From: an uncultured Candidatus Marinamargulisbacteria bacterium
GTDB lineage: Bacteria; Margulisbacteria; Marinamargulisbacteria; CAZFTP01
Reading direction: 5' to 3'
NCBI GenBank assembly: GCA_964521915.1
Contig: CAZFTP010000008.1
Span: 1,497-65,496 of the forward strand
DNA: 64,000 nucleotides
The notes beneath the pieces are model-generated. The model did not search any database and was not told the DNA's origin. It saw nothing but the letters and a program-made list of their open reading frames with translations. Positions 24,906 through 47,617 of this stretch are shown here, one piece after another; positions within the stretch are counted from its first letter, which is position 1, and each line of letters begins with the position of its first letter. The translations under genes were made by a program, and so were the position numbers.

Positions 24906-24973
24906 AAAAGTGCTTGCATTCGAAATAAGATTAGGTAAAATAAGAATATAATCAAATTTTTAAGGAGGCTAAA

Positions 24974-25120
24974 ATGGCTCAAGGTTATTGCGTAAAATGT
25001 AAATCTAAAAAAGATATGGCAGATACTCAAGAAGTTGTAATGAAAAACGGCAGAAAAGCAATGAAAGGAAAATGTTCTTCTTGCGGAACTGCAATGTACA
25101 AAATTTTAGGTAAAGCCTAA
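24974..25120 (+). CDS. Small zinc-ribbon protein (about 48 aa, CxxC...CxxC), absent from the 60-aa ORF track
   Basis: It has a strong Shine-Dalgarno (taAGGAGGctaaaATG). The protein is MAQGYCVKCKSKKDMADTQEVVMKNGRKAMKGKCSSCGTAMYKILGKA, with two CxxC pairs. Confidence 0.6.
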   Translation: MAQGYCVKCKSKKDMADTQEVVMKNGRKAMKGKCSSCGTAMYKILGKA

Positions 25121-25134
25121 AGTTAATTTACTAT

Positions 25135-25229
25135 GGGGCTGACTCAAAAGTTCGTCAGGCGAGGCGTTTTGAGCACGAGCGCGCGAGTGCGAAACGCAAC
25201 GAAGCATCACGGACTTTTGGGATAGCCCC
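25135..25229. repeat. GC-rich palindromic repeat element, copy 1 (ggggctgactcaaaagt ... acttttgggatagcccc)
   Basis: A 95-bp element with about 60% GC sits in an AT-rich background. Its terminal inverted repeats are ggggctg/tagcccc and caaaagt/acttttg. The second copy is at 31556-31697. Confidence 0.8.
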
Positions 25230-25230
25230 T

Positions 25231-26466
25231 TTAATTATTAATCTTCTCAAAATGTTGTTTTGATTTCTGATATGCTTCATCAATAAATGTTACCCAGTTT
25301 AAATTTTTTTCTTCTAATGATCTGCTAAAACGCTCTTTTTTTATTTTTGCCATTTCAGGCGGAAAAATTTTATCAAACAAGGCGTTGATTGCTTCCCTCC
25401 CTTCTTTGGAAGTAAACTTTTTCTTTAGTTGATTATTCAGGGCAAAATAATGCTTTTTGAATAATTGAAGGTATTTTTCCTTTATTTCCTCATCTAAAGT
25501 ATGAAGCATATGTAATTCAACACCATCTTTTAAATAATCTTGCCTAATCCAGTAATCTTCCGGTTTATTTGGTCCCGAAGGATATAAGACAAATTCATGA
25601 TCAATTGGCCAAAGATTGTTTTTTTTATCCACTAAATAATTACCAAAGATTTCTTTATCTAACATACCTAAGTAACGATCTCCTTTATTTATCAAATCAA
25701 AAGCCGCGGAAAATTCCGCTAATTTTTTTATCCAGTAATCTAAGCAAGGATAATATTCTTTTTTCAATTTGTGGTTTTCAAAAAGTTCAGAGGAAGGTTT
25801 TGCCTCTTCTAAATATTGCGTTAAAATAAAATTACCATTTATTACTGACGAAGTTTTAAAACAGTGCTTGAATTCACATAGTTTTAAATATTCGTTAGTA
25901 AAATATTCGTTCATGATTTTTTCAGTTTCTTTTTGTTTTATGATGATTTTAATTTCTTTTTCATTTACCTTATAGTGAAGAAGATAAACAAATTGACCCG
26001 GTGGGGTAGTATCTAAAGAAGAAGATAAATCTGTTACTTCTGTTAAACAAAAATCGGAAATAGCTTTTTCCCTAGTTAATTTTTGCAAAAAATTTTTGAC
26101 CTCTTCTTGATACGGTAAAAGTTTATTGGTAAAAATTTTTACTCTATCTTCTTTACTTAGGTATTCATTAATAAATTTACGACAAATTTTTATATGGTCT
26201 CCTAATTTTTGCTGAAATTCCAGAGATTCAATATTAGCTGTTCTTAAGACTTCAGACCATTTGTAGGCTTTTTTTATAAATAAATCTGGGCTTAATAGAT
26301 TATTTAAAAGTTCTTCCTGGCTCAATAACTTAAAATGTTGTGAGATTTTATCTTGCGCAAATGCTAAAAAAGAATAAATAGATTGATTTATTCTGGTAAG
26401 AAAAACTTGATCTTCTAGCAAAGAAAACGGTGACGAATTTAATAAACTAATTATTTTCTTCATCAT
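25231..26466 (-). CDS. Hypothetical protein, possibly with a protein-kinase-like (APH/CotS-type) fold
   Basis: 411 aa. The segment GDRYLGMLDKEIFGNYLVDKKNNLWPIDHEF weakly resembles the catalytic loop (HxDxxxxN) plus IDxE motif of the APH/choline-kinase superfamily. The similarity is weak. Confidence 0.3.
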   Translation of the reverse strand: MMKKIISLLNSSPFSLLEDQVFLTRINQSIYSFLAFAQDKISQHFKLLSQEELLNNLLSPDLFIKKAYKWSEVLRTANIESLEFQQKLGDHIKICRKFINEYLSKEDRVKIFTNKLLPYQEEVKNFLQKLTREKAISDFCLTEVTDLSSSLDTTPPGQFVYLLHYKVNEKEIKIIIKQKETEKIMNEYFTNEYLKLCEFKHCFKTSSVINGNFILTQYLEEAKPSSELFENHKLKKEYYPCLDYWIKKLAEFSAAFDLINKGDRYLGMLDKEIFGNYLVDKKNNLWPIDHEFVLYPSGPNKPEDYWIRQDYLKDGVELHMLHTLDEEIKEKYLQLFKKHYFALNNQLKKKFTSKEGREAINALFDKIFPPEMAKIKKERFSRSLEEKNLNWVTFIDEAYQKSKQHFEKINN

Positions 26467-26528
26467 TATAATAAATTCCTTTGATATTTATCGGAATAAA
26501 TAATAAAAGATTGCTAGTGAAAGAATTG

Positions 26529-27188
26529 TTATTTTACTGCTTTATGTAAATAACAAGGTTTTAAAGTTAAATAATGACTTTTTTCCTGAGCTTGAAAAGC
26601 AGACTGCGCCATTTCCGCAATTATTGTACCTTTTAAGAAAAAATGACTAATTAACCTTACTGCAGTATTATTAAAAACATCAGTTAAATCTAATTTTGAC
26701 GATAAATTAATTACATAAACCGGCTCTTTAATTTTAATTAAATTATTAGTAATAACAGCTAAATCTGCACTAAAATCGTTAGTTAACCGCATAACTTTTT
26801 CATTATTAACACTAAATACAGCTAAATTAATGAAATCTTGATAAGCTTTCATAACAGGAAAATAGATACCATCATTTTTTTTAAAATGATTTACCGCTGT
26901 TAATAAAGTAGAAAAACCATAAATAGGGATGCCGTATAACATTGCAATAGTTTTAGCAAAAGTAATAGAAACACGTAAACCAGTATATGACCCAGGTCCA
27001 TTGATAATGCCAATACCAGATAAATCTGGATATTTTAAATTATTCTTATTTAAAAACTCCGCTACTTCTAAAACCAAGTTTTCTGAAAAATGTCTTTCAG
27101 GTTTAAAAGAATGTTCTGCTAATGGTTGCCCGCTGTTACTTATGCCAAGAGAAACTATTTCTGTGCTTAAATTAATACCTAAAAACAT
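26529..27188 (-). CDS. tsaB: tRNA threonylcarbamoyladenosine biosynthesis protein TsaB (YeaZ)
   Basis: 219 aa. It has an N-terminal ASKHA fold. The motif YTGLRVSITFAKTIAMLYGIPIYGFSTL matches the TsaB signature. Confidence 0.75.
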   Translation of the reverse strand: MFLGINLSTEIVSLGISNSGQPLAEHSFKPERHFSENLVLEVAEFLNKNNLKYPDLSGIGIINGPGSYTGLRVSITFAKTIAMLYGIPIYGFSTLLTAVNHFKKNDGIYFPVMKAYQDFINLAVFSVNNEKVMRLTNDFSADLAVITNNLIKIKEPVYVINLSSKLDLTDVFNNTAVRLISHFFLKGTIIAEMAQSAFQAQEKSHYLTLKPCYLHKAVK

Positions 27189-27308
27189 AAATTAATTTTT
27201 TCCTCTGTTCAAAAAATTTAATAATACTACAATATCATTAAAGCTCCTGTTTCAAAATAGTTTTTGGGTTTCTCAACAAATTTCAAATAATTTTCCATAC
27301 AAGTTATA

Positions 27309-29657
27309 ATGAAATTTCCCCGATATAAAAATATTATGGAAGTATTACCATTACCAATTCAAACTTCATTACCTAGTAAGGTAGCGCAGAGCAGTGCTGT
27401 AACGGGAGCTAAACCTGTTAAAGTTAGTACAGAAAGTTCCAAGGTTGAAAGCTTGCTATTAACAGGATTTAATATTGAAACAGTAGTGTCTCCTCAAACT
27501 AACAGGACTTTATTGTTACAAGCCGCCAGCGATAAACATTGGGATACGGTAGAATATCTACTTTCAAGAGGGGCAGATGGTAGTGCCAGAGATAGTTTAG
27601 CGCAAACTGTTTTTCAATATTTAATCCAGCCCAATACCAAACTTCCTAAAAATGCCGAAAGAATTTTGTTCCAATTATTAGCCTCTCATGCTATGGAGAT
27701 TAATGAAGCTGATACTAATACAGGTTTACGCCCTTTAGAAGCAGCAATACTAAATAGAAATTGGACTATAGTAGAACATTTATTAAACGCAGGAGCAGAG
27801 CAAATTAATACAAATAATCTGGAAATACTTCAAATAGTTAATGCTCTTGGTTTAACCGCTACACATGATCCAAGTTTACAAATGATTTTTTATCCCTTAG
27901 TTAATAGAATTGCCCGTAGTGTAGAAAATTCTCAAGAATTAATTGATTTATGTATTACCAACAAACTATTTCATTTGGCCGAACTTTTTATTGGGCAAAT
28001 GGTAGATGGCATAGATAAACCTAATGATAAAAAAGCTTTGTTATTATCATATATTAAATCGCAAGATTACCCAGGGAGTTTTAGGGTTAATTTGCTAAAA
28101 ACTTTTGCTAATTTATTTTCTAATAACCCGATACAAATGCCACCGGATGTAGCTATTTTAGTTGATATTTGTTTTCAAAACAAATTGTATGATTTAGCTA
28201 ATGCTTTAATTACCAGTAAATTAAAAAGTAAAAATAAAGCGGAAAAAATAGCTTTTCTTAAAAAAATGTTTTCCTTAAAATCTATTAATTCAAATTTCAA
28301 GGTTGAATTATTCTTAGAAACTAAAAGCATTTTTAATAAAAAAGAAATTATTCAAATTCTAAACGACATTGTAACAGATTATTTAGAAAATAGAAAAATG
28401 GGTAGCAGTAGTTATAAAGAAAATTCAAATGAAAAAATATTATGGGACATGATGAAAAAAATTTTTGGGACTAATAATCCCTCTCAAGTATTACGAAGAT
28501 TATTCTCTTTACAAGTTCAACCGCCAGTAGAAAATCTAGTTGATTATCTCTTCCTCAGAATTCCGTTAGAAGAAAGAGCAACACTATTAGAACCAGATCA
28601 TTATGGTCGCAGTATAATAGTAATGGCGGTTAGTCAAAGAAATGACGTTTTTTTAAGAGAGAGATTACTGATGCTAATTTTGGAACAACAGAGTAAAAAC
28701 CCAACTATAAGTTTTCGTAGCCTATTATTAACTCCTGATAGTAGCGGTTTTTCAGCTCTTTCTGCCGCTATGAATAGAGGAGATAGATCTTTAGTATTTG
28801 ATCTTACCAACCTCGCTATGAATAAGGATATTAACCCAGAACCACCAATTGATACCATTCTTACAAAACAAGATGATATAGTTCATTTAAATGCAAAAAT
28901 AGATATTTATCCTAAAAATAACCAAGGGAAAACTCCATTTGTCTATTTATTAGAAAATGAGACAAAAAATAAAGAGATCATACAAGAACAAGTAATATTT
29001 TTTTGTACCCAAAAATTAGTTACATATCAAGAAAACTTTGCGGAAATAATGAAAATTTTAAATCACCCTAATTTGAACAAAGCTCAAAAAAGAGAAAGAT
29101 TACAACTTTATTTAACGGCTTTTTTATCTATTGCTTTACAGATTGAAAATCCAATGCAATATGAAGGAATTAGAAATGCTGTTGATGCTTTAACTAATCA
29201 ATTATTTCTTTTCAATGAGTTTCCTTTAAGACAGGGTATTGTAAGCGAGAGATTTGGAAGAAAAACTTCTTTGTTTGATTTATTTATCAAATTTTTTACA
29301 GATACTCTTAATGAGGAAATAAAAAAAACCAAAACCAACTTTTCTACTGAGACCCCGGCTGAAATTCAACTGCCAGTTCAAGAATTTGTCAATTTGGAAA
29401 GCCAAATTAACAGCTTATCCTTCCTAATGAATCAATTTCAAACAGATCATCTAACTCGTCTTGCCCCTGATTCTCAATTAGCCACGGATTTAAGAGCTAT
29501 GCAATCAAAAATTAAAACTTTTCAAGCAGTAATTACTGGTAATCCTAAATTTCAAGAAATGAATACTAAATTAGAAAAATTAGTTAGAGTTATACAACTA
29601 TTTTTAGATAATGACGAACAATTTTTTAGTACTGCTAATCAAGCAATATTAGCTTAG
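27309..29657 (+). CDS. Ankyrin-repeat-containing protein (eukaryote-like), large C-terminal region of unknown function
   Basis: 782 aa. It has N-terminal ANK repeats (TLLLQAASDKHWDTVEYLLSRGADGSARD; LRPLEAAILNRNWTIVEHLLNAGAEQINTNN; later FSALSAAMNRGDRSLVFDLTNLAMNKDIN). There is no signal peptide. Confidence 0.65.
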   Translation: MKFPRYKNIMEVLPLPIQTSLPSKVAQSSAVTGAKPVKVSTESSKVESLLLTGFNIETVVSPQTNRTLLLQAASDKHWDTVEYLLSRGADGSARDSLAQTVFQYLIQPNTKLPKNAERILFQLLASHAMEINEADTNTGLRPLEAAILNRNWTIVEHLLNAGAEQINTNNLEILQIVNALGLTATHDPSLQMIFYPLVNRIARSVENSQELIDLCITNKLFHLAELFIGQMVDGIDKPNDKKALLLSYIKSQDYPGSFRVNLLKTFANLFSNNPIQMPPDVAILVDICFQNKLYDLANALITSKLKSKNKAEKIAFLKKMFSLKSINSNFKVELFLETKSIFNKKEIIQILNDIVTDYLENRKMGSSSYKENSNEKILWDMMKKIFGTNNPSQVLRRLFSLQVQPPVENLVDYLFLRIPLEERATLLEPDHYGRSIIVMAVSQRNDVFLRERLLMLILEQQSKNPTISFRSLLLTPDSSGFSALSAAMNRGDRSLVFDLTNLAMNKDINPEPPIDTILTKQDDIVHLNAKIDIYPKNNQGKTPFVYLLENETKNKEIIQEQVIFFCTQKLVTYQENFAEIMKILNHPNLNKAQKRERLQLYLTAFLSIALQIENPMQYEGIRNAVDALTNQLFLFNEFPLRQGIVSERFGRKTSLFDLFIKFFTDTLNEEIKKTKTNFSTETPAEIQLPVQEFVNLESQINSLSFLMNQFQTDHLTRLAPDSQLATDLRAMQSKIKTFQAVITGNPKFQEMNTKLEKLVRVIQLFLDNDEQFFSTANQAILA

Positions 29658-29667
29658 GTAGTTAATA

Positions 29668-30036
29668 ATGGAATTAAATATAACTAATTTATTAATGCAA
29701 AGAGAAACTGGTAAAAAAACAGCTTACCAATTTAGCGAAATTATCAAAAAAAAAGCAATTGATAGTATAAAAGATATTAGAAAAGCGATAATTCAAGATG
29801 ATATAGCTCAAGCCGTATCTTTAACAAGAGACAATCTGGCAATTATTTATCAGTTTAATGTGGCAGAAGCAATGGCATTAGCAAATCAATTATTAAGAGT
29901 TCTTAGTATAAAAATTGCTGATAGTCATGATGAATCTTTAAAAACCGAATATCAAAATAGTATAAAAAAAATACTAACTGCTATGCCAGATGATCCAGCA
30001 AAAAAGTTGTTAATGGCTAGATATGGAAAAAGTTAA
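29668..30036 (+). CDS. Hypothetical small helical protein, probably co-transcribed with the ankyrin protein
   Basis: 122 aa. It starts 10 nt after the preceding stop. No domains were recognised. Confidence 0.35.
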   Translation: MELNITNLLMQRETGKKTAYQFSEIIKKKAIDSIKDIRKAIIQDDIAQAVSLTRDNLAIIYQFNVAEAMALANQLLRVLSIKIADSHDESLKTEYQNSIKKILTAMPDDPAKKLLMARYGKS

Positions 30037-30058
30037 AATATTTTAATTTAATTACGTT

Positions 30059-31510
30059 TTATATCAACTTTTTTGCTACATTTAATAGTTTTTCCGCTTC
30101 AGTTTCTTTTAAAGCTTCCGCATAAATTCTGGCAACTGGTTCTGTACCTGATAACCTCATTAAAACCCACGCATTATCTAAAATAATCTTTAAACCATCT
30201 AATTTGTTTAATTCTTTAATTTTTAAGCCAGTTAGGTTTTCAATTTTATCTTTAGTTAAATCTTGAAAAAGCTGTATTAAGGCTGGCTTTTGTTCAGGTT
30301 TAAAGTGATATTCTTCTTCTTTAAAATAGAATTTACCGTATTCGGTAAAAATTTTATTTTTTAATTCTGAAAGTCTTAGCTTTGAATCTTTTAAAATATA
30401 AAGTAAAAATAGTGCTGGTAAAAAACCGCATTTTTCTAATACGTGAAATGAAGCTGTGAAACCACCGCTAGATTCTACCGCTAAACTTATTTTATTTTCT
30501 TTACGAGCTTTTTCCAGAAAATCACAAAAATATTTAAAACCTACTGCTGTTTCACAGTATTCTTTATTGTTTTTTTCTACTACAGAACGCACTATCATAG
30601 AAGAAGCTACGGTAGTAGCAACACCTAACATGGGTTGGTTCTTTTTCATTAAGTAATCAAAAATAATGGCTGTAACTTCTTCAGGAGTAACTAAATCTCC
30701 GTTTTCATCAAGCACCACATGACGGTCTCCGTCCGGGTCATTGGCAATGGCAATCGGGGATTTAAGCTCTTTCTGCTTCTTTTTGAGTTCATTCAAAGAA
30801 TTTGGTTTAGTTGGGTTTGGTTCGATATTACCAAAATCTGATTGGGGTTCTTTATCAAGAATAACGAAATTTGTAATGCCAAGAGTATTAAAAATAGCGT
30901 CCCAATAACTACCTACAGTACCGTGCTTGGCATCAATAGCAATAGGAAAATCCAAATTTTTGATATTAATACCGGTAATTTTATCTAATTTTTCAAGAAG
31001 ATCTGCAACAAATTCTTTTTTAATATCAATATCTTTGACTTGAGTTGTGAAATCCAGCGAAGCAATGCCTTCCTCAAAATATTCATTGGCTTTATCTTCA
31101 ATAATTTTGGTGATTTCGGTATTGCTTGGCGCGCCGTTTGGTAAATTAAATTTAATCCCGTTATATTCTGGGGGATTATGTGAAGCAGTAAGAATAATAC
31201 CTCCATCAAGTTTTGCTTGCGGAATATGCCAAGCAACTACTGGAGTAGGGGAATAAAAATCAAAAAAATCTACTTCCACATTTTCATAAGCGAGAACATC
31301 ACAAATTGCTTTGGTAAAACTACCATCTTCTAAATCAGGGGAATTACCTTTTCTTGGGTCATAACCCAGAGCTATTCTTGGATTAGTTGAAATAGATTTT
31401 ACGTAATCAGCGACCGATTTAGCAATGGCTTTTACGTGCTGTAATGTAAAATCTTTACCAATGATACCACGATGACCGGAAGTTCCGAATGAGATTGGTT
31501 TTTTTGACAT
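30059..31510 (-). CDS. Phosphomannomutase/phosphoglucomutase (alpha-D-phosphohexomutase family)
   Basis: 483 aa. It has the active-site Ser loop TASHNPPEYNG, the metal-binding loop DPDGDR and a sugar-binding loop. An AAGGAG RBS precedes the start. Confidence 0.85.
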   Translation of the reverse strand: MSKKPISFGTSGHRGIIGKDFTLQHVKAIAKSVADYVKSISTNPRIALGYDPRKGNSPDLEDGSFTKAICDVLAYENVEVDFFDFYSPTPVVAWHIPQAKLDGGIILTASHNPPEYNGIKFNLPNGAPSNTEITKIIEDKANEYFEEGIASLDFTTQVKDIDIKKEFVADLLEKLDKITGINIKNLDFPIAIDAKHGTVGSYWDAIFNTLGITNFVILDKEPQSDFGNIEPNPTKPNSLNELKKKQKELKSPIAIANDPDGDRHVVLDENGDLVTPEEVTAIIFDYLMKKNQPMLGVATTVASSMIVRSVVEKNNKEYCETAVGFKYFCDFLEKARKENKISLAVESSGGFTASFHVLEKCGFLPALFLLYILKDSKLRLSELKNKIFTEYGKFYFKEEEYHFKPEQKPALIQLFQDLTKDKIENLTGLKIKELNKLDGLKIILDNAWVLMRLSGTEPVARIYAEALKETEAEKLLNVAKKLI

Positions 31511-31555
31511 TGTATACTCCTTTATATATATACCCCCTCATGGGGGGGAATTTCA

Positions 31556-31697
31556 GGGGCTGACTCAAAAGTTCGTCAGGCGAGGCGTCTTGAGCACGAG
31601 CGCGCGGGGGAAGGGGCGAACGGCCGTTCGCCCGTACCCCAAATGAGCACGCGAGTGCGAAAAGTAACAAAGCATCACGGACTTTTGGGACAGCCCC
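31556..31697. repeat. GC-rich palindromic repeat element, copy 2 (expanded, with a nested perfect palindrome gggcgaacggccgttcgccc)
   Basis: Both ends match those of copy 1. It carries an internal duplication of gagcacg(a)gcgcgcg plus a 20-bp perfect palindrome. It lies in the divergent promoter region between pgm and the DUF4143 ATPase. Confidence 0.8.
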
Positions 31698-31857
31698 AAA
31701 CCCCGAGCTCAGTATACCCAAAGTAATTAATTTTTAATAGAGTAAGAAAATTTGTTCAAATCCTAAAATTAGACTTGCTATTATTACTTGACAAATTTTA
31801 AGCCCACTTGAAAAAAGTCTTGACAAATTTTAAGTTGGGTTTAAAATTATTATTAGG

Positions 31858-32994
31858 ATGACTACTATAAACCGATACTTAAAAGAAGCGGTGTTAGAAG
31901 ATTTAGATTCAAAAATTATTATGGTTAGCGGTCCGCGGCAAGCGGGCAAAACAACTTTTTCAAAATTTTTAAAGCCATCTTATACTTACCTAAACTACGA
32001 TTTAGCTGAACACAGAAAATTACTACAAGAAAAAGCTTGGGCGCACCAAACCTCCTTAGTAATTTTTGATGAAATTCATAAAATGAACGAATGGAAACGC
32101 TTTTTAAAAGGAATATATGACACTAAAACCAACAATCAAGCTATGCTAGTTACTGGTAGTGCAAAATTAGATATGTTTCGTAAAACTGGCGATTCTCTGG
32201 CAGGACGTTATTTTAGTTTTCGTTTACACCCTTTTGATATTAAAGAGTTAAATAAAGTTGGTTTATTAGCTAAAAATCCTCAAGAAACCATTGAGCAATT
32301 ATTAACAGTTTCAGGGTTTCCTGAACCCTTTTTAAATGGTAAACAACAATTTTACCAGCGTTGGCGTAAAACTTATTTAGATGTAATTTTAAGACAAGAT
32401 TTATTAGATCTTACTGCAATAAAAAATATCTCTGTTATGGAAACTTTAATTGAAATGCTCAGATATCGCGTTGGTTCACCTGTTTCCGCTTTGTCATTAG
32501 CACAAGACTTGCAAATCAGCCCACAAACAGTGCAACAATGGTTATCAGTACTTGAAGGGTTATATGTAATTTTTAAAATATCTCCCTATCATAAAAATAT
32601 CGCCAGATCACTCCTAAAAGAATCAAAATATTATTTCTATGATACCGCTTATGTTTTAGGAAATTCCGGAATAAAATATGAAAACCTAATTGCTAATTCC
32701 TTACAAAAAGAAATTCAACGAATAGAGGATATTACAGGTAAATCAACAAACTTATTTTATCTTAGAAACAGAGCTGGGAATAAAATAGATTTCTGCATCC
32801 AAATTGAAGATCAACCTTTTATTCTTATTGAAGTAAAAGAAAAAGATGATAATCTATCATCTAATTTAGTTTATTTTTCACAATATTTTCAAAACCCTCA
32901 ACTAATCCAATTGGTAAGATATTTAGAATATCCTAAAGAATATCCAAACGGAGCTAAAATTGTTTCTGCCACAGAATGGCTTATTGAATTCTAA
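31858..32994 (+). CDS. AAA-family ATPase with a DUF4143-type C-terminal domain
   Basis: 378 aa. It has a Walker A motif (SGPRQAGKTT) and a Walker B motif (LVIFDEIH). Tandem -35-like direct repeats 'cttgacaaattttaag' lie upstream. Confidence 0.7.
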   Translation: MTTINRYLKEAVLEDLDSKIIMVSGPRQAGKTTFSKFLKPSYTYLNYDLAEHRKLLQEKAWAHQTSLVIFDEIHKMNEWKRFLKGIYDTKTNNQAMLVTGSAKLDMFRKTGDSLAGRYFSFRLHPFDIKELNKVGLLAKNPQETIEQLLTVSGFPEPFLNGKQQFYQRWRKTYLDVILRQDLLDLTAIKNISVMETLIEMLRYRVGSPVSALSLAQDLQISPQTVQQWLSVLEGLYVIFKISPYHKNIARSLLKESKYYFYDTAYVLGNSGIKYENLIANSLQKEIQRIEDITGKSTNLFYLRNRAGNKIDFCIQIEDQPFILIEVKEKDDNLSSNLVYFSQYFQNPQLIQLVRYLEYPKEYPNGAKIVSATEWLIEF

Positions 32995-37591: not shown

Positions 37592-37616
37592 AAGGGCTTG
37601 AACCATGAAATTCTCG

Positions 37617-37647
37617 TATCCCCAGGGTGCTCCGCACCCTGGGGATA
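37617..37647 (+). promoter_or_regulatory. GC-rich perfect hairpin (13-bp stem tatccccagggtg/caccctggggata, loop ctccg) between tig and clpP. No U-tract follows it.
   Basis: The inverted repeat is visible directly. It is followed by the GGAGGG RBS of clpP. It is not a canonical intrinsic terminator. Confidence 0.5.
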
Positions 37648-37673
37648 CATAAACAACAAACGGAGGGTAAAAC

Positions 37674-38261
37674 ATGTCTGTACTAATTCCAATGGTAATT
37701 GAACAAACCGGTCGTGGTGAAAGAAGTTACGATATTTATTCTCGTTTACTAAAAGAAAGAATTATTTTCGTTACTGAACAAATTGATGACCACATGGCAA
37801 ACACCATTATTGCCCAATTGTTATTTTTGGAAGCAGAAGATCCTGATAAACCAATATCTATGTATATAAATAGCCCTGGTGGTGTAGTAACTGCTGGGTT
37901 AGCAATTTATGATACTATGCAATATATTAAAGCTAAAGTTTCTACCATTTGTTTAGGGCAAGCGGCTTCCATGGGTGCATTATTATTAGCCGCCGGGGAA
38001 CCTGGTAAACGTTATGCTTTATCATATTCACGTATTATGATTCACCAACCATTAGGTGGCGCCCAAGGTCAAGCAACAGATATTGAAATTCAAACAAAAG
38101 AAATTCTAAGAATTAAAAAAATTATTAATGATATCTTAGTAAAACATACTCATAAAAGTCTTAAGCAAATAGAAAAAGATACTGATAGAGATTTTTTTAT
38201 GAGTGCCGATGAAGCTGTTAAATACGGGCTCATTGACGAAGTTATAGTAAAAAAAGACTAA
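37674..38261 (+). CDS. clpP: ATP-dependent Clp protease proteolytic subunit
   Basis: 195 aa. It has the active-site Ser context [11 protein letters not shown], the His in MIHQP, and an N-terminal [11 protein letters not shown] motif. Confidence 0.95.
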
Positions 38262-40521: not shown

Positions 40522-43266
40522 TCAAGACATTTCCTTAGTTACATAATTATTTCTATAATTTTCAACTTCCTTCAAAAAATATTTACCATAATATTTTGTA
40601 ACTAGACGTGTATCTAAAACATATATAGAACCAGTATCTTGTTTAGTCCTAATTAATCTGCCAATACCTTGTTTAAATTTTAACACTGCCAAAGGTAAAG
40701 AATAATTCATAAAGCTATCTTTACCTTCTGTGGTTAATAAATCCATTCTAGCTTGATGTAACGGATCTGAAGGTACTGGGAAAGGCATCTTCTGAATAAT
40801 AAGGCATTTAAGCAAATCTCCTGCTAAATCTACGCCTTCCCAAAAACTATCTAACCCAAAAATTACAGCCTGGTCAAACTGTTTAAACCGCTCCAAAATA
40901 CTTTCTCTAGATCCATGTATATTTTGGCAAAAAACCGTTGTAGGATAATTATTTAACAACTCTTTCAAATAATGATATGTACGTCTCAAACTTTTTTGTG
41001 CAGTAAATAAAACTAAAGTCTTTTGAAAATTTGAAGTAACAATTTGAAAAATACTCTGAGCAATATCAGCATAATACTCTTCTGTATCTTGAAATACTGG
41101 TAAATCTGTAAATAAATTAAACTCTGCCTGGTTATAATAATCAAATTCAGATGCCAAAATTAAAGTCTTAAAATTTTCAGTGATACCCAATCTATTTAAA
41201 AAATAATCAAATTGTTGATTAATTGATAAAGTAGCAGAAGTAAAAATACAACTTTTCTTTTGATTTATATAATCTTGAAAAATGTTTTTAATATTAATAG
41301 GCACTGAAATTAATTTTAAAAATTTTGCTTTATTTGTATTTTCTTCTTCTAACCAAGTGATAAAATTTTCCGGTAAAGCTATTTGTACTTCTAAATCTAA
41401 AATTAATTGTTTTAAAAAATCTTCATTATCAATAAAAATATGACACATGTTTTTAATCACATTATCTTTATTAAACTTATTTAATTCTTCAATAATTTGC
41501 TCAAAAATCTTTCTAATGGTTTTTAATTCTAAAATTAAATCATTAAGCCGATATTTTATTTCTGCAAAATTATTACCATTACCTAATTTAGCAGAAAAAA
41601 TAATTTGCTTTTTTTCTCCGGATAATATTTTGGTATCTCTAAATAATGTTTTGAGATAATCGAAAAAAACATTATGCTGTTCTTTTAACTCATTAATTTT
41701 ATCTTTTAAATAACGAAAATATTCTGAAAAATCACAATTTTTTTCAGTTACTAATCTTTTATTTACTAAGTCTATTTGTTCTAAAAAAACAGATTTATGC
41801 CTTAATGAAAAATTAGAAAAAAGTTCTTTTAAAGTAAAATTAGAAAAAACTTTACCAGTAGAAAAACCCACTATATCTTCTAAAGAATGTGCTTCATCAA
41901 AAATTATATAATCATATGCCGGTAATATTTTATTTCCATTAAAATAATCAGCAAACACTAAAGAATGGTTAGTGATAATTAAATCTGCCTGTTTTGCTTT
42001 ACGTCGCATTTTTTGAACAAAACATTTGTTTTTAAATACCCGGTTATCGTTATATTCAGAAAAAGTTGTAAAATTTATTTTATAATAAAATATTTTGTAA
42101 ATAGTGGGGTGTAATTCAGTTAAATCGCCTAATTTTGTAGTTAACAACCAATTAAATAACCCTAAAAATTCGATGGCATCATTTTTATGAAGACCTAAAT
42201 TAAACTCTTTTAATAAAGAATCAAACTTTCTTAAATCAAGAAAATTTTCTTTTCCTTTAACTAAAGCAAAGGTAAAATTAGGGATATTTTCACAACTAGT
42301 ACGTAAAAGATCTTGAAACATAATTTGATTCTGCAAATGCTTGGTTTTAGTACTAATAATAATTGGCTTCCCTTGCTTTTTAGACCAGATTATACTGGGT
42401 ATTAAGTAAGCTAATGTTTTACCAATACCTGTACCAGCCTCAACAACCCCGTATTCCGCATTTTGAAATCTTTCAAAAATAAATTCCGCCATATTGGCTT
42501 GGCTATCTCTTATTTCAAAATTAGTAAAATTATTATTTAAGGGTGATTCTTCTTGAAAAAAACTCTTTATATCTTTAGGCCAACTTTTAAAATTAGTATC
42601 TTTTTTGGGTTGAGAAATATCTTTTAAGCCGTTTAAATAATCTAAATAATTTAAACTTTTACCTTGATATATCTCTTGATAAAATATTGCTAAAAACTCT
42701 TTTAAAGCCTGCTTTTCCAAAGGTAAAATTTTTAAAGCTTGATTTAATATTAAAGGATTAATTTTTAATAATTCTTCATGCATCTTCAAAAAAATCTCTG
42801 CAACCGCTAATGCATCATTAAGAGCTCTATGGGCTTTTAAAAGAATATTAAAATTTTTGGCTAATGCGCTTAATTTATGGCTATAAAAATGAGGGTATAA
42901 AATTAAAGCTAATTCTTGAGTATCTAACAATTTATTAGTTAAAGAAGGGGACCCTAATCTTAAAAATTCTTGATTCAACATATCAAAATCAAATTTGATA
43001 TTATGCGCCACTAAAATATTTTGCCCTATAAAATTTTTGATTTTAGGATATACCTCTGAAAAAACTGGCGCATTTATTAATAAATCATCGGTTATACCTG
43101 TAAGTTTAGTAATAAATTCTACTAAAGGCTTTTGGGGTTTAATTAAAGTAGAATATTTTTCTACAATTTGTCCGTCAGCTATTTTGACTAAGCCGATTTC
43201 AATTATTTCATTATCTTTATAAGATAATCCAGTCGTTTCAATATCTAAACAAACAAACTCATTCAT
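40522..43266 (-). CDS. dinG: DinG-family ATP-dependent helicase with an N-terminal DnaQ-like 3'-5' exonuclease domain
   Basis: 914 aa. It has an N-terminal exonuclease motif (CLDIETTGL; HRALNDA), a helicase Walker A motif (GTGIGKT) and a DEAH box (FDEAHSLED). Confidence 0.8.
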   Translation of the reverse strand: MNEFVCLDIETTGLSYKDNEIIEIGLVKIADGQIVEKYSTLIKPQKPLVEFITKLTGITDDLLINAPVFSEVYPKIKNFIGQNILVAHNIKFDFDMLNQEFLRLGSPSLTNKLLDTQELALILYPHFYSHKLSALAKNFNILLKAHRALNDALAVAEIFLKMHEELLKINPLILNQALKILPLEKQALKEFLAIFYQEIYQGKSLNYLDYLNGLKDISQPKKDTNFKSWPKDIKSFFQEESPLNNNFTNFEIRDSQANMAEFIFERFQNAEYGVVEAGTGIGKTLAYLIPSIIWSKKQGKPIIISTKTKHLQNQIMFQDLLRTSCENIPNFTFALVKGKENFLDLRKFDSLLKEFNLGLHKNDAIEFLGLFNWLLTTKLGDLTELHPTIYKIFYYKINFTTFSEYNDNRVFKNKCFVQKMRRKAKQADLIITNHSLVFADYFNGNKILPAYDYIIFDEAHSLEDIVGFSTGKVFSNFTLKELFSNFSLRHKSVFLEQIDLVNKRLVTEKNCDFSEYFRYLKDKINELKEQHNVFFDYLKTLFRDTKILSGEKKQIIFSAKLGNGNNFAEIKYRLNDLILELKTIRKIFEQIIEELNKFNKDNVIKNMCHIFIDNEDFLKQLILDLEVQIALPENFITWLEEENTNKAKFLKLISVPINIKNIFQDYINQKKSCIFTSATLSINQQFDYFLNRLGITENFKTLILASEFDYYNQAEFNLFTDLPVFQDTEEYYADIAQSIFQIVTSNFQKTLVLFTAQKSLRRTYHYLKELLNNYPTTVFCQNIHGSRESILERFKQFDQAVIFGLDSFWEGVDLAGDLLKCLIIQKMPFPVPSDPLHQARMDLLTTEGKDSFMNYSLPLAVLKFKQGIGRLIRTKQDTGSIYVLDTRLVTKYYGKYFLKEVENYRNNYVTKEMS

Positions 43267-43730
43267 AAATTTTTACATAAAAAACAAAGGACATCTTTAG
43301 TTAAGACAAGCTTACATTTTGTACAAAAACGATAACCTTCTTTTATTTTTCTTTCTTGCTCCATTTTTATTTTATCCGCTAAATTTAATTTTTTATTACT
43401 TTTTAATGATTTATTATCCAATAAATTTTTATTTTGAGGTAGTGTCTCTTTTTGGTAAAAAACTTTAATATCTTGAATTAATGGTTTATTAAAAATTAAG
43501 TTAATTTTTTTAATTAAATCTTTTTTAAAAAAGTTTATTTCCGTAACCCATAAATAATTTAAAGCTTCTACATACAAAGTTTGATTTTTTAAATAACTGA
43601 ATTTTAAATCTTTTGCCAAATTTCCAAAAATACCTTCCCAATTAGCTTTTATTTTTTTAGCAATTTCGATATTAAATATAGTTTTTTTTAAGGATTTTGT
43701 TTCTTTTAGAAGATCGTATAAATTAGACAT
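43263..43730 (-). CDS. DUF721-type protein (the small zinc-ribbon-containing protein usually found next to recF)
   Basis: The start is placed at the internal Met (MSNLYDLLKE...), which overlaps the recF stop in the form ATGTCTAA. It has a C-terminal CxxC...CxxC motif (CTKCKLV...CFLCKN). Confidence 0.5.
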   Translation of the reverse strand: MSNLYDLLKETKSLKKTIFNIEIAKKIKANWEGIFGNLAKDLKFSYLKNQTLYVEALNYLWVTEINFFKKDLIKKINLIFNKPLIQDIKVFYQKETLPQNKNLLDNKSLKSNKKLNLADKIKMEQERKIKEGYRFCTKCKLVLTKDVLCFLCKNL

Positions 43731-44820
43731 GAAAAATTTCTCCGTTAACAATTTTAATTTTTTTAGCCTCTTTGAAAAACTGATCTGTGGTGTCTTGAAT
43801 AGTAGCATAAAATATTTGCGTTTTAGGTGCAATAATATCTAATAGTTCTTTAATAATTTCATTATCTAATTCGCTAAAAATATCATCAAGTAAAAGGATG
43901 GGGAAGATTTGCTTAGTTTCTTGTAAAATAATTAATTGACTTAACCGATACAATAAAGAAAAAAGGAGATTAATACCTCTTGAAAAAAACAAATTAATTT
44001 CTTTATTATCAATAAGAATACTAAAATCATCTCTATGCGGACCATATAAAGAAATTCCTAACATCTGTTCATGATGAAAATTATTATCAAGTTCTATAGC
44101 TAGTTTTTCTTGATAATTATTATTATCAATTTGTTCGGCAAAGTTCTTAAACTGATAATTAATTATTAGCTTTTTATCTTTTAATTTATTAAATCTTTTA
44201 AAAAAAATATTAATAGTTGTTTCTATTTTCTTTAAATATTGCAAACGATAATTGATTATATTGGTAGCTGATAAAATCAATTTTTCATTCCATAATTCAA
44301 TTCTTTCTTTTTTTGATTTTTCTTTTAATAAAAAATTTTTTTGTTTAATTATTTTCTGATAATCTTTAATAATTTTAGTATATTCATTAATATCATTTTT
44401 GATAAAACTATCTAAACTTAATCTACGATATTCAGGGTTATCTAAAAATAAGCGTAAATTTTCCGGTGAAATATTTTCAATCAAAATATTATTTTTTAAT
44501 ATTTCTATTTTCTTAACTGGTTTATTGTTAATTATTAAAAACTTATTATTATTTGAAGTTAGTTTGGTGTATACCCTTAAATTTTGATTTTGATAAAAAA
44601 AATCCCCGCCAATAAAACTTTCTTGCTCTTTAAAATTTATTAGATTATTAATGCTTATGTTTTTAGGTGAATTAATATTACCTAAAAAATAAATAGCTTC
44701 TAATAAATTAGTTTTACCTTGATTGTTTTCTCCAAAAATATAAATCAATTTTTGATTATTAAAATCTATTACTGTTTCTTTTAAATTACGAAATCCTTTT
44801 AACCAAATCTTTTTTAACAT
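43723..44820 (-). CDS. recF: DNA replication and repair protein RecF
   Basis: 365 aa. It has a Walker A motif (GENNQGKTN), an SMC-like signature and a Walker B motif (LLLDDIFSELD). Confidence 0.9.
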   Translation of the reverse strand: MLKKIWLKGFRNLKETVIDFNNQKLIYIFGENNQGKTNLLEAIYFLGNINSPKNISINNLINFKEQESFIGGDFFYQNQNLRVYTKLTSNNNKFLIINNKPVKKIEILKNNILIENISPENLRLFLDNPEYRRLSLDSFIKNDINEYTKIIKDYQKIIKQKNFLLKEKSKKERIELWNEKLILSATNIINYRLQYLKKIETTINIFFKRFNKLKDKKLIINYQFKNFAEQIDNNNYQEKLAIELDNNFHHEQMLGISLYGPHRDDFSILIDNKEINLFFSRGINLLFSLLYRLSQLIILQETKQIFPILLLDDIFSELDNEIIKELLDIIAPKTQIFYATIQDTTDQFFKEAKKIKIVNGEIFHV

Positions 44821-44886
44821 CTAAAAAAATAAGTTTGGGGTATAAAATATTTTATACTTTTTAGATATTCCCAATCTCTATTATCA

Positions 44887-46047
44887 TTAAGCAGGGCTAG
44901 CAACTACTTGTTCTTTTTTAGTTTCATTGACCGTATTTTCATTAGTTCTAATAGGCATAAGGACATAAATAAATTCATTATTCACTTTACCTTTAATAAT
45001 ACAAGGTTTAACATTACTATTAAATTCAAAACATATTTCATCATCTTCAATAATTCTTAAAGCATCTAAAAGTAGTTTGACATTAAAAACTATTTTGTTT
45101 TCTACTTTTCCTTTAGTTCTATTAATTTTAATTTTTTCTTTAAATTCTCCTAAATTTGGTGCTTGCGCATTAATAGTCAAATTTTCATCAATAATAAATT
45201 TGATAATATTATTTGATTCTACAGCCAAAATACTGGCTCTTTCACAAGCATCTAAAAATTCTCTTCGGGATATAATTAAATTATTTTCTGTTTCTGATGG
45301 AATAACTTGCTTATAGTCTGGAAATTGACCTTTAATTACTCTTGTTACTAAAATAAAATTATTCATTACAAAACTAACTTGATTTGGTGCAATGTTCATT
45401 TCAATTTTAGTATCTTCTTCAAAAATTTGACTAATTTTAGCTAATTCATTAATAGCTTTAAAAGGAATGATAACTGAAAAATCATCTTTTAAATCAGCTA
45501 CCGTTTTACTATTTAACGCTAACCTAAAACCATCTGTAGAAAGGAATAATATTTTTTTATTTTCACTTTTACAAAGTATACCGTTTAAAAACTGTTTAGT
45601 TTCATCAAATGAAACGGCAAAAATAGTAGTTTTAATTAGTTCTTTTAGATCTTTTAAAGTAAGTTGAACTTTAATACCTTTTTCAATTTCAGGAAAAACA
45701 GGGTATTCATCAGCATTAGTACCAAATAGATCAAAATCTACTTCCTTAGTTTTTATTTTAATTTTTTGATCTTGTATATTGAATTCTAAATTTTCATTTA
45801 ATAACTTACTAACAATACTACTCAAAGTACGCGCTTTTACTAATATTTTTCCGTTTTCATTATTATTTTCTATAGGCATAGTATATTCTATTCCCATTTC
45901 TAAATTATGCCCGCGTAATTTCAATTGATTACTTACTATTTCTAAAAATAAATTTTCTATTATTGGTAAAGTACTTTTTGCTGGTACTGCTTTTTCAACA
46001 ATATTAATACTTTTTTGTAACAAGTTACTTTCACAATTAAATTTCAT
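44887..46047 (-). CDS. dnaN: DNA polymerase III beta sliding clamp
   Basis: 386 aa with a three-domain beta-clamp layout. It lies between dnaA and recF. Confidence 0.9.
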   Translation of the reverse strand: MKFNCESNLLQKSINIVEKAVPAKSTLPIIENLFLEIVSNQLKLRGHNLEMGIEYTMPIENNNENGKILVKARTLSSIVSKLLNENLEFNIQDQKIKIKTKEVDFDLFGTNADEYPVFPEIEKGIKVQLTLKDLKELIKTTIFAVSFDETKQFLNGILCKSENKKILFLSTDGFRLALNSKTVADLKDDFSVIIPFKAINELAKISQIFEEDTKIEMNIAPNQVSFVMNNFILVTRVIKGQFPDYKQVIPSETENNLIISRREFLDACERASILAVESNNIIKFIIDENLTINAQAPNLGEFKEKIKINRTKGKVENKIVFNVKLLLDALRIIEDDEICFEFNSNVKPCIIKGKVNNEFIYVLMPIRTNENTVNETKKEQVVASPA

Positions 46048-46276
46048 TTTTTATATACCTCCTTATATTATTATTATTATTATTATTATAAATTAAATAT
46101 ATAGTAATAGTCATAGTACCTGTTAATTTGTTAATAACTCTCTTTTTTATTTTTATTATAACAAGTTTTGGTTTTAAAACTTGTTAATAACTTTATATAA
46201 AAAATAATAATAATTTACTTCTTAATTGTTATTAACAATTTGTCCACAATAATTAACAGTTTTTACACTAATTATT
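46048..46276. promoter_or_regulatory. dnaA-dnaN intergenic region with a DnaA-box-like site (TTGTCCACA at 46240-46248), repeated TTGTTAATAAC motifs and dyad symmetries. It is the candidate downstream half of a bipartite oriC.
   Basis: TTGTTAATAAC occurs at 46128-46138 and 46181-46191. There is a hairpin aacaagtttt-ggtttt-aaaacttgtt and a palindrome aattgttaTtaacaatt. There is a one-mismatch DnaA box. Confidence 0.5.
46066..46089. repeat. (ATT)8 trinucleotide microsatellite in the dnaA-dnaN intergenic region
   Basis: A perfect 'tattattattattattattattat' run is visible. Confidence 0.7.
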
Positions 46277-47617
46277 TTATTCTTCATTTTTTATGTTTAA
46301 AATTAGAACATTAATAATATTTTTAGTTTGATCATCTTTATCTAACATCAATTTTATTTTATCACAAGAATGCATAACAGTAGTATGATCTCTGTTGCCA
46401 AAATTTTCACCAATTTTTGGTAAAGAAACATTAGTTAATTCTCTAGTTAAATACATACAAATTTGTCTAGCATAAACTAATTCTTTAGACCTATCTTTAG
46501 AAGATAAGTCATTTTCTGGTATTTGAAAATATTCGGCAACCTTTCTTTTAATTGTTGCAATAGTTAAAGGTTTTTCTGCTTTTATACCAATCATGTCTTT
46601 TATAACATTACTGGCGATAGATAAAGTAACATTTGTTTGTAATAAAGAGGCATAAGCCACAATTCTGGTTAGGGCGCCTTCCATTTCTCTAACATTATGA
46701 GGAATTTGGCTGGCAATATAATGTAGTATTTCATCGGAAATATTAAAATTATTTATTTCTATTTTTTTTCTCAAAATAGCAATTCTGGTTTCTAATTCAG
46801 GTGGTTGAATATCAGCAATTAATCCCCAGCCAAAGCGAGTTCTTAACCTTTCTTCTAAAGTAGGTATATCTTTTGGCGGTCTATCTGAAGTAATAACAAT
46901 TTGTTTATTCTTACCATGGAGTTCATTAAAAGTATGAAAAAATTCCTCCTGAGTTTGTTCTTTTCCAGCTAAAAATTGAATATCATCAACTAAGAGAATA
47001 TCAACTTTACGATATTTATCTCTAAAATTTCCGGTTTTTTTATCTTTTATGGAATTAATTAAATCATTAGTGAATTTTTCAGAAGAAACGCAACTAATTT
47101 TTAATTTTGGATGCATTTCTTTTATCTTCAAACCGATCGCATGTAAAAGATGCGTTTTCCCTAACCCTACAGAACCATAAATAAAGAGTGGATTATAAGC
47201 TTTAGCCGGTGCTTTTACGACAGCTTCTGAAGCGGCATATGCGAAACGATTGTTAATTCCGACAATAAAATTTTCAAAAGTATATTTATGGTTTAATAAT
47301 ATTTCCTCATCTTTTTCTTTTTGATTTTTATTAAAAGGTAAAGATATTTGGTTTTCTTCAGTTTGTTTAAATTCATCTTTAACTAAATAATCAAAAATAA
47401 TAGTGTTATTAAAAAAGTTTTTAAGGTAATCTCTTAAAACCGGTTCACATTTCTCCCTGATCCATTCCTTTGAGAAGCTATTAATAACTTCAATTTGCAT
47501 AACATTGTCAAAAAAAGAAACAGGTTTTGCAGATGACAAAAATGTTTGGTAACCGGGATTAGAAAGATGATCATTCAAACAAGTTAAGATGTTTGTCCAT
47601 ACTAATTCTTTGTTCAT
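46277..47617 (-). CDS. dnaA: Chromosomal replication initiator protein DnaA
   Basis: 446 aa. It has a Walker A motif (GSVGLGKTHLL), a Walker B motif (LLVDDIQFL) and a C-terminal helix-turn-helix DNA-binding domain. Confidence 0.95.
   Translation of the reverse strand: MNKELVWTNILTCLNDHLSNPGYQTFLSSAKPVSFFDNVMQIEVINSFSKEWIREKCEPVLRDYLKNFFNNTIIFDYLVKDEFKQTEENQISLPFNKNQKEKDEEILLNHKYTFENFIVGINNRFAYAASEAVVKAPAKAYNPLFIYGSVGLGKTHLLHAIGLKIKEMHPKLKISCVSSEKFTNDLINSIKDKKTGNFRDKYRKVDILLVDDIQFLAGKEQTQEEFFHTFNELHGKNKQIVITSDRPPKDIPTLEERLRTRFGWGLIADIQPPELETRIAILRKKIEINNFNISDEILHYIASQIPHNVREMEGALTRIVAYASLLQTNVTLSIASNVIKDMIGIKAEKPLTIATIKRKVAEYFQIPENDLSSKDRSKELVYARQICMYLTRELTNVSLPKIGENFGNRDHTTVMHSCDKIKLMLDKDDQTKNIINVLILNIKNEE

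Follow-up and report, generated by a model that had tools for sequence, protein, structure and literature searches.

Genomic context of the element

The window, by which we mean the whole 64-kb stretch of DNA analysed here, has a background GC content of 29.0% and contains two copies of a GC-rich palindromic element. The positions of copy 1 and copy 2, of their internal parts and of the adjoining genes are given in Table 1. Copy 1 is found within the 3' untranslated region of a short DUF5679 gene, in sense orientation and starting 14 nt past the stop codon. A 411-aa ORF converges on it from the other side, and the stop codon of this ORF is located 2 nt beyond the last base of the element, leaving one intervening base. 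A sequence-only reading of this DNA had placed the element between convergent genes and directly beside a stop codon, which is the arrangement found. The same reading gave the unit as approximately 95 bp with approximately 60% GC in an AT-rich genome, in good agreement with the values measured for copy 1. The 411-aa protein has no homologues at E<=1e-5 in a word-indexed search of 5.8 billion protein sequences.

Copy 2 occupies the divergent intergenic region between a phosphoglucomutase/phosphomannomutase-family gene (pgm) and an AAA_14/DUF4143 ATPase gene. It is antisense to pgm, 45 nt upstream of the pgm start codon, and the ATPase gene begins 160 nt downstream of it. The best promoter-like site of the ATPase gene (TTGACA-16-TAAAAT, 31820-31847) is situated between copy 2 and the gene. 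The segment separating the two copies is of genome-typical GC content and encodes tsaB, pgm, an orphan gene and an ankyrin-repeat gene. Pfam analysis of the ORFs of at least 150 aa in the 64 kb, and of the two smaller genes adjoining the copies, revealed no transposase, integrase or HUH protein. All seven window proteins that were found in the protein collection, ClpX and ClpP included, are more or less singletons at 90% identity, so the lineage is very poorly sampled.

Table 1. Positions of the two element copies, their internal features and the adjoining genes within the window
Feature	Position	Strand	Remarks
DUF5679 gene	24974-25120	+	48 aa; PF18930, E 2.5e-16
Copy 1	25135-25229	+	95 nt, 58.9% GC
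Left terminal inverted repeat, copy 1	25135-25160	+	pairs with 25204-25229
AGCGCG, copy 1	25178-25183	+	six extra apical-loop bases compared with the P0128 form
Right terminal inverted repeat, copy 1	25204-25229	+	26-nt arm
Orphan ORF	25231-26466	-	411 aa; convergent on copy 1
pgm	30059-31510	-	phosphoglucomutase/phosphomannomutase family
Small C5/G7 hairpin	31533-31548	+	CCCCCTCATGGGGGGG; 7 nt left of copy 2
Copy 2	31556-31697	+	142 nt, 62% GC
GAGCACG, first	31592-31598	+	7-nt direct repeat bounding the nested module, copy 2
Nested GC-rich hairpin module	31599-31644	+	46 nt; apex of copy 2
GAGCACG, second	31645-31651	+	7-nt direct repeat bounding the nested module, copy 2
AAA_14/DUF4143 ATPase gene	31858-32994	+	

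Boundaries and composition of the two copies

Copy 1 opens with GGGGCTGACTCAAAAGT and closes with ACTTTTGGGATAGCCCC. When the two copies are aligned pairwise, the similarity extends exactly from GGGGCTG to exactly AGCCCC, and the flanks are unalike (...TTTACTAT and TTTAATTA... around copy 1; ...AATTTCA and AAACCCC... around copy 2). Outside a single indel there are 5 substitutions in 95 positions (approximately 95% identity). The first 32 nt of the element, GGGGCTGACTCAAAAGTTCGTCAGGCGAGGCG, occur twice in the window, both times on the + strand, where shuffled sequences lead to an expectation of 0.00. The sequence-only reading had reported a longer, rearranged copy 6.3 kb away. Copy 2 is indeed longer; however, it is collinear with copy 1 rather than rearranged, the difference being 47 nt inserted internally where the hairpin has its apex, and the two direct repeats are 6421 nt apart from start to start. 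No direct repeat of 2-10 nt that could represent a target-site duplication surrounds either copy.

The two copies and a tRNA are the only long non-coding islands in a GC scan of the 64 kb (40-nt windows, at least 60% GC). Neither permissive blastn nor the GC-island scan revealed further diverged copies, whether in the window or in the other loci compared. One further short, terminator-like GC-rich hairpin was picked up by the same scan at 37603-37654. In Logan assemblies of SRR4343444, contigs of this genome terminate inside the element, as is expected where a repeat interrupts k-mer assembly. One contig, L032, begins at element position 23, which suggests an additional branch.

Terminal inverted repeats and folding

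Terminal inverted repeats had been noted in the sequence-only reading and are present in both copies. They are imperfect, 21-26 nt long (GGGGCTGACTCAAAAGTTCGT / ACGGACTTTTGGGAYAGCCCC), and taken as 26-nt arms are 77% complementary in copy 1 and 81% complementary in copy 2. The outer stem of the RNA folds has 20 pairs; it shows a single A.A mismatch and either two or three G.U pairs, copy 1 having an A8.A88 mismatch and three G.U pairs. Folding of both copies, which the sequence-only reading had put forward as a check, produced rods from the + strand RNA, at -45.4 kcal/mol for copy 1 (shuffles -28.4 +/- 3.2, z -5.3) and -75.7 kcal/mol for copy 2 (z -6.3). The - strand folds of both copies are weaker by about 8-10 kcal/mol (-35.4 kcal/mol for copy 1), because the two or three G.U pairs of the + strand become C.A mismatches. 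The hairpins also form with DNA folding parameters.

Three imperfections recur in every copy, also in the third one described below: the A.A mismatch, U10.G86 and U18.G78. Between the copies a T-to-C change at position 89 converts a G.U pair to G-C, and the substitutions within the inner helix (positions 34, 61 and 63) break pairing without compensation.

A third copy within a protein-coding gene

GC-rich segments in AT-rich genomes often lack stop codons, and for this reason a protein collection was searched with translations of the element. The query consisted of the concatenated open-frame translations of both copies (six-frame), and the collection held 5.8 billion proteins. A single protein matched: P0128, a 304-aa singleton encoded on a 262,883-nt NCBI contig. 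Residues 224-253 of P0128 read GADSKVRQARRLEHASAKSNEASRTFGTAP, which is the frame-1 translation of the element, and this segment is set in Lys/Glu-rich sequence of the kind typical of an AT-rich genome. In tblastn searches of the window with P0128, copy 1 was matched in frame 1 with 52.8 bits (E 3e-10), while the match was identical at 14/14 residues in the 5' half of copy 2 and at 17/18 in its 3' half (EHASAKSNKASRTFGTAP). Each residue of the P0128 segment is accounted for by the DNA of either copy 1 or copy 2.

The ORF of P0128 runs on for 51 codons beyond the element. At 29% GC the chance of 51 open codons is estimated at approximately 0.01 (using a stop frequency of about 0.08 per codon), which argues that the insertion is genuinely in frame. 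One reading frame of the element is open, and it is used in frame in one host ORF. All three copies are in sense orientation with respect to an adjoining or host gene.

P0128 has no Pfam domain, and a profile covering all 304 positions recovered only P0128 itself from a representative library of 1.84 billion proteins. P0128 is an orphan, and a profile of its full length tests only weakly for other proteins that carry the element. Most likely P0128 is encoded on another contig of the same MAG: the window proteins have no near relative in the collection, yet the element within P0128 is nearly identical to those of the window.

Length variation at the apex

The length of the apex varies among the three copies, between 4 and 57 nt. 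In the P0128 peptide the sequence is ...LEH-ASAK..., the ER codons that AGCGCG adds in copy 1 being absent. It demands a junction of GAGCAC with GCGAGTGCG, i.e. the sequence of copy 2 from 31645 onward, and this GAGCAC-GCG junction occurs once in the P0128 form. We infer a basic unit of approximately 89 nt. Compared with this form, copy 1 has 6 extra nt, the AGCGCG that is equal to the first 6 nt of the copy 2 module, and copy 2 has 53 extra nt, made up of the 46-nt module and the second GAGCACG. The module holds a perfect 20-nt palindrome, GGGCGAACGGCCGTTCGCCC, at 31614-31633, and its arms (31607-31623 and 31624-31640) are 88% complementary.

When the sequence of the basic form is reconstructed it too folds as a rod, at -44.5 kcal/mol (z -6.1), with the cap GCAC-GCGA-GUGC, so that the hairpin ends in a GNRA tetraloop. 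The basic unit would consist of the 20-pair outer stem, an inner loop-and-helix region and this apex, which would have been enlarged in both window copies. The module bounded by its 7-nt repeat and the 6-nt remnant in copy 1 indicate that insertion and deletion have occurred repeatedly at the apex. The simplest reading is that a second small hairpin inserted in the apex of the first and was then fully or partially lost elsewhere. Small elements nested in one another are known for BOX, RUP and SPRITE (PMC10969869).

Empty sites in related genomes

The sequence-only reading had suggested a comparison with the orthologous intergenic regions of relatives, and the element is absent from both regions that were compared, L033 for copy 2 and L034 for copy 1. 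L033 is a JGI landfill-metagenome contig (sample 3300014208) which encodes a PGM 89% identical over 279 aa. Its upstream region aligns to the window on either side of copy 2. The RBS-side anchor, TATACTCCTTT, matches exactly over 11 nt, and the right flank has a local score of 43, compared with 18.3 +/- 2.6 and a maximum of 31 for shuffles. Between the anchors L033 has 11 nt, none of it element-like, where the window has 184 nt. These 184 nt comprise a TA run, the C5/G7 hairpin (the fold of which is no better than that of shuffles), the 142-nt element and 10 more nt. The extra DNA at this site exceeds the element, and we count this against the reading as an insertion element.

L034 is a Margulisiibacteriota MAG contig with 29% GC, in which DUF5679 follows SpoIIE as it does in the window and the promoter is highly conserved. 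The stop codon of its DUF5679 gene is followed by a canonical intrinsic terminator (GAGGACGATTTT...AAAATCGTCCTC, then a T-run), with no element, and the 17.7 kb of L034 contain no comparable non-coding GC island. Because both relatives are diverged, a deletion on their side or a complex local rearrangement is a conceivable alternative. Taken with P0128, these comparisons establish a discrete hairpin unit with fixed ends at three unrelated places, absent from two orthologous sites.

A composite transposon or island bounded by the two window copies was ruled out, as the flanks of copy 2 are contiguous in L033. The copies could also be conceived of as a non-mobile leftover. On this view GC-rich DNA taken up horizontally, or a pair of the attL/attR type, would have been copied once when a local rearrangement set the limits of the 6.3-kb segment at 25230-31555. 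Such an origin would suit direct repeats which are only 6.4 kb apart and which enclose an orphan gene and an ankyrin-repeat gene. However, the contiguity of the copy 2 flanks in L033 points to a simple local insertion and not to an island edge, the intervening DNA is genome-typical in GC and carries the housekeeping genes tsaB and pgm, and the third copy is on a different contig and inside an ORF. We regard this origin as very improbable.

Searches for known families and for copies elsewhere

With Rfam 15 the only match in the whole window at the gathering score was the tRNA. Searches of each copy at E<=10 yielded nothing beyond generic matches to miRNA hairpins and snoRNAs, far below gathering (e.g. 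mir-3926 with 23 bits versus 82). The sequence-only reading had proposed such a search, naming membership of a known RNA family as what would speak against it, and no Rfam family was matched.

Several specific candidates were considered and rejected. A faint likeness to helix 8 of SRP RNA (GUCAGG...GAAGCA) did not hold, since the SRP model gave no match, the element is multi-copy and absent in relatives, and one copy lies in an ORF. The 5' sequence GGGGCUGA suggested tmRNA, of which ARAGORN and Rfam found none in the window or in the loci containing the 18-mer. The position beside a stop codon prompted a comparison with integron attC sites, which are recognised by RYYYAAC and GTTRRRY cores, one at either end, and by a neighbouring integron integrase. 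The ends of the element are GGGGCTG.../...AGCCCC, with no R''/R' core sites, and no integrase was found in the window. The flanks and end sequences also rule out models of the Tn3 type (5-bp duplication) and of the TA-duplicating MITE type.

Wider copies were sought by exact words in the GTDB, JGI and IMG/VR collections, scans which diverged relatives of the element could escape. The 5' 20-mer gave 3 exact matches in GTDB representative genomes, all due to chance (a coding region and Bacillaceae terminator hairpins), and the 5' 18-mer gave 22 exact matches in JGI metagenomes, 0 of them with the remainder of the element. Within IMG/VR both arm words gave a few chance matches, and the degenerate two-arm pattern and the nested module gave 0. 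A blastn search in 'distant' mode with copy 2 against plasmids and phages returned short GC-rich chance matches only.

The Rfam results bear on whether the copies are paralogous genes for a structured non-coding RNA, or a cis-acting RNA, made GC-rich by selection on the fold in the way of tRNAs. The resemblance in GC to the tRNA island and the strong z-scores of the folds speak for this. Copy 1 is 10 kcal/mol more stable on the + strand than on the - strand owing to its three G.U pairs, the change at position 89 improves a pair, the reconstructed basic form has its GNRA tetraloop, and all three copies are sense to the adjoining or host gene. Yet neither copy has an Rfam match at E<=10 that would identify a family, and one copy is read in frame within an ORF. 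Copy 1 follows a stop codon by 14 nt and has no promoter of its own, the orthologous sites of two relatives are empty, the substitutions at positions 34, 61 and 63 disrupt pairing, and the apex differs in length between 4 and 57 nt. An RNA gene family is, on this balance, unlikely.

Comparison with known repeat families

In-frame fusions of a repeat with protein-coding sequence are known for the Rickettsia palindromic elements (RPE; Ogata et al. 2000, as summarised in PMC10969869), which appear to be the closest functional match. Both are palindromic hairpin repeats of roughly 100-150 bp in an AT-rich genome, found in intergenic regions and in frame within genes, where they add a conserved peptide, and in both cases there is no associated transposase and no evident target duplication. 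The host, though, is unrelated, its nearest relative by gene order being a Margulisiibacteriota MAG, and the likeness is functional; no homology to RPE is claimed. The present element also differs in being markedly GC-rich relative to its genome and in having a nested hairpin module. Three copies are known here, one of them genic, against dozens in a Rickettsia genome.

Bacterial MITEs (Correia/NEMIS, ERIC, BOX, RUP and SPRITE) are similarly small and bounded by terminal inverted repeats, form a stable hairpin as RNA or DNA and do not encode a transposase. They share with our element the occurrence of length variants due to internal indels, nesting and possible terminator activity. However, Correia elements duplicate TA and no target-site duplication was found here, copy number appears to be very low, and this element has no known parent insertion sequence whose ends match.

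The REP/BIME sequences mobilised by RAYT/HUH proteins are alike in being imperfect palindromes with conserved mismatches, extragenic and often between convergent genes, in lacking target duplication, and in acting as terminators or mRNA stabilisers. They differ in that REPs are 20-40 nt long with a GTAG/CGTC head, number tens to hundreds of copies and are accompanied by a RAYT gene. Our unit is approximately 89-142 nt and occurs twice in 64 kb, the window showed no Y1/HUH gene, and the CGTC that the unit contains (element positions 19-22) is internal, not terminal.

The mobile GC clusters of yeast mitochondria are hairpins of 30-60 bp present in hundreds of copies in an organellar, eukaryotic genome. 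They too are GC-rich palindromes in an AT-rich genome, differ in presence or absence between relatives and are at times found in frame in a coding gene (VAR1). They are shorter, far more numerous and belong to an organelle of a eukaryote, so the comparison is one of analogy only.

Possible origin and function

We consider it fairly probable, with considerable doubt remaining, that the repeat is a low-copy, lineage-restricted, non-autonomous hairpin insertion element resembling RPEs and MITEs. The sequence-only reading had spoken of a mobile or structured-RNA repeat family comparable to RPE, REP/BIME or MITEs. A dispersed palindromic repeat of the RPE or MITE kind is upheld by the sharp ends, the empty sites and the in-frame third copy, and the word family is too strong for three copies. 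Points which count against mobility are that only three copies are documented, that there is neither target-site duplication nor a transposase in the window, and that selection on an RNA structure could likewise explain the G.U pairs of the + strand and the high GC content.

If the element is indeed mobile, its copies would have arisen by insertion at the DNA level, with an enzyme acting in trans and encoded elsewhere in the genome. The lack of a flanking direct repeat at either window copy argues against a classical cut-and-paste MITE that duplicates its target. Recognition of a single-stranded hairpin (HUH/RAYT or IS200/IS605-like) would, speculatively, fit somewhat better, given that there is no target duplication, that the same mismatches recur in all copies and that one strand folds better than the other. 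The recurrent mismatches and the strand bias are also compatible with descent from one imperfect master copy. Once inserted, the element would be tolerated because it is harmless, having an open frame and lying in a low-complexity region of a protein, or because it is useful.

Of the roles which the sequence-only reading had allowed for (terminator, mRNA stabiliser or small-RNA locus), only that of a terminator, at copy 1, has indirect comparative support. No other stable hairpin was found between the two convergent genes, copy 1 takes the position held by the terminator in L034, and it is followed on the + strand by UUUAAUUAUU. On these grounds copy 1 probably terminates or stabilises the DUF5679 mRNA, and the transcript of the convergent gene may be blocked by it as well. 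Canonical terminators have far shorter stems, and the U-tract does not stand out from the AT-rich background. A terminator scan did not call copy 1 and found no terminator in the gap between the DUF5679 gene and the 411-aa ORF. At copy 2 a -10-like TATACT, conserved with the relative, is now located just beyond the element, and speculatively the 5' leader of pgm may include the element in antisense.

Such roles raise the alternative that the repeat is a terminator or insulator module selected at gene ends, comparable to SPRITE or REP, with mobility incidental or extinct. Copy 1 would serve well as an example, in that it spans a convergent gap, stands in place of the canonical terminator of L034 and precedes UUUAAUUAUU on the + strand. 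The other two copies do not follow this pattern: copy 2 is in the promoter region of two divergent genes and has no obvious terminator role there, and the P0128 copy lies within coding sequence. Even for copy 1 the U-tract is at background level and the terminator scan made no call. Selection as a terminator module thus seems to us an improbable account of the repeat, and an insertion element which may have been put to use at one site is preferred.

A bolder proposal, which we put forward as doubtful, is that the insertion element belongs to a class of hairpin elements not described before, GC-rich and compatible with translation, in a Margulisbacteria-like lineage, with RPE-like behaviour outside Rickettsia. 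These elements would invade intergenic regions as well as ORFs in frame, and would move as strand-specific single-stranded hairpins without target duplication. A smaller hairpin module would use the apex as its landing pad, giving a 7-nt duplication on insertion, and could be excised precisely (the P0128 form) or imprecisely (the 6-nt scar of copy 1).

Implications

In-frame palindromic selfish DNA within protein genes has been documented mainly for Rickettsia, and how it moves is unsolved. An independent example would show that the phenomenon of in-frame palindromic elements is not peculiar to Rickettsia, the host in this case being an uncultivated, AT-rich, free-living lineage found in landfill metagenomes. 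The three forms, namely the basic form, the one with a nested module and the one with a 6-nt scar, would offer a small system for the study of hairpin insertion, hairpin excision and the origin of terminators. Care should also be taken with genomes that harbor such elements, as they break short-read assemblies, which is seen in the Logan contigs here, and may pass for non-coding RNA genes in screens of GC-rich intergenic regions.

Breakpoints of the element in assembled contigs

The Logan contigs of SRR4343444 break within the element, with L031 ending at position 27, L032 starting at position 23 and L001 starting at position 4. The break in L001 is located at the point predicted, for k=31, from two copies having 33 nt in common. 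The breaks in L031 and L032 are located off the point predicted in this manner, which hints at extra variant copies of the element, or at strain variants, within the SRR4343444 sample.

Sequences flanking copy 2 and other repeats

A 16 nt sequence, CTTGACAAATTTTAAG, is present twice directly 5' of the DUF4143 ATPase gene (31787-31802 and 31819-31834, 32 nt apart), and the best promoter-like -35 site falls within the second of these. The pair may represent tandem promoters or an operator pair. On the other side of copy 2 lies a small C5/G7 hairpin (Table), which is not present in L033, the landfill-metagenome contig of a relative, and folds no better than shuffled sequences. It may have arisen by another insertion of a small GC hairpin, or belong to the element in a longer form.

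The GC-rich perfect hairpin at 37603-37654 looks like a terminator and has no sequence relationship with the element. A repeat of approximately 150 nt found in metagenome contigs (BNJT01/BNJV01, 28% GC) opens with the same 19-mer, GGGGCTGACTCAAAAGTTC, and is present in two distinct genomic contexts, L011/L018/L028 versus L022/L029, all of which are long AT-rich contigs. Beyond the 19-mer nothing is common to this repeat and the element, and the two are unrelated.

Two open reading frames of the window contain repeats of their own. The 906-aa ORF carries diverged internal repeats belonging to families D1-D4 (65-79% identity, spacing about 111-249 nt); it has no match in Pfam, and its product is probably a repeat protein. 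The 243-aa ORF (6642-7373), likewise without a Pfam hit, contains three tandem 42 nt (14-codon) repeats at 7107-7229 with 72-77% identity.

Features of the window outside the two element copies
Feature	Position	Strand	Description
C5/G7 hairpin CCCCCTCATGGGGGGG	31533-31548		TA run before it; 7 nt left of copy 2
Perfect hairpin GTATCCCCAGGGTGCTCCGCACCCTGGGGATAC	37603-37654		GC-rich; between trigger-factor gene and ORF 37674-38261
DciA gene	43263-43832	-	Origin-region gene cluster
recF-like SMC_N gene	43723-44820	-	Origin-region gene cluster
dnaN	44887-46047	-	Origin-region gene cluster
dnaA	46277-47617	-	Origin-region gene cluster
906-aa ORF	61016-63736		Internal repeats at 62712-63629

Genomic context

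Orphan or fast-evolving genes are clustered close to copies of the element. The 411-aa ORF (25231-26466) gave zero homologues in a word-indexed search of 5.8 billion protein sequences, the 782-aa protein (27309-29657) contains ankyrin repeats, and P0128, the orphan protein from another contig that encompasses a third copy in frame, has no homologue among 1.84 billion representative proteins.

The window also holds the chromosomal replication-origin region (43263-47617 and about 47.6-48.2 kb), where GC skew, negative up to about 47-48 kb, turns positive. Copies 1 and 2 share the same replichore and the same orientation.

The 5' region of the DUF5679 gene (24913-24973) is near-identical to positions 7450-7510 of the Margulisiibacteriota MAG contig L034, reading CTTGCATTCG...TAAGATTAGGTAAAAT...TTTTTAAGGAGG, and is more conserved between the two than the gene's own synonymous sites. 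The region is a candidate for a strong conserved promoter, or for a 5' leader.
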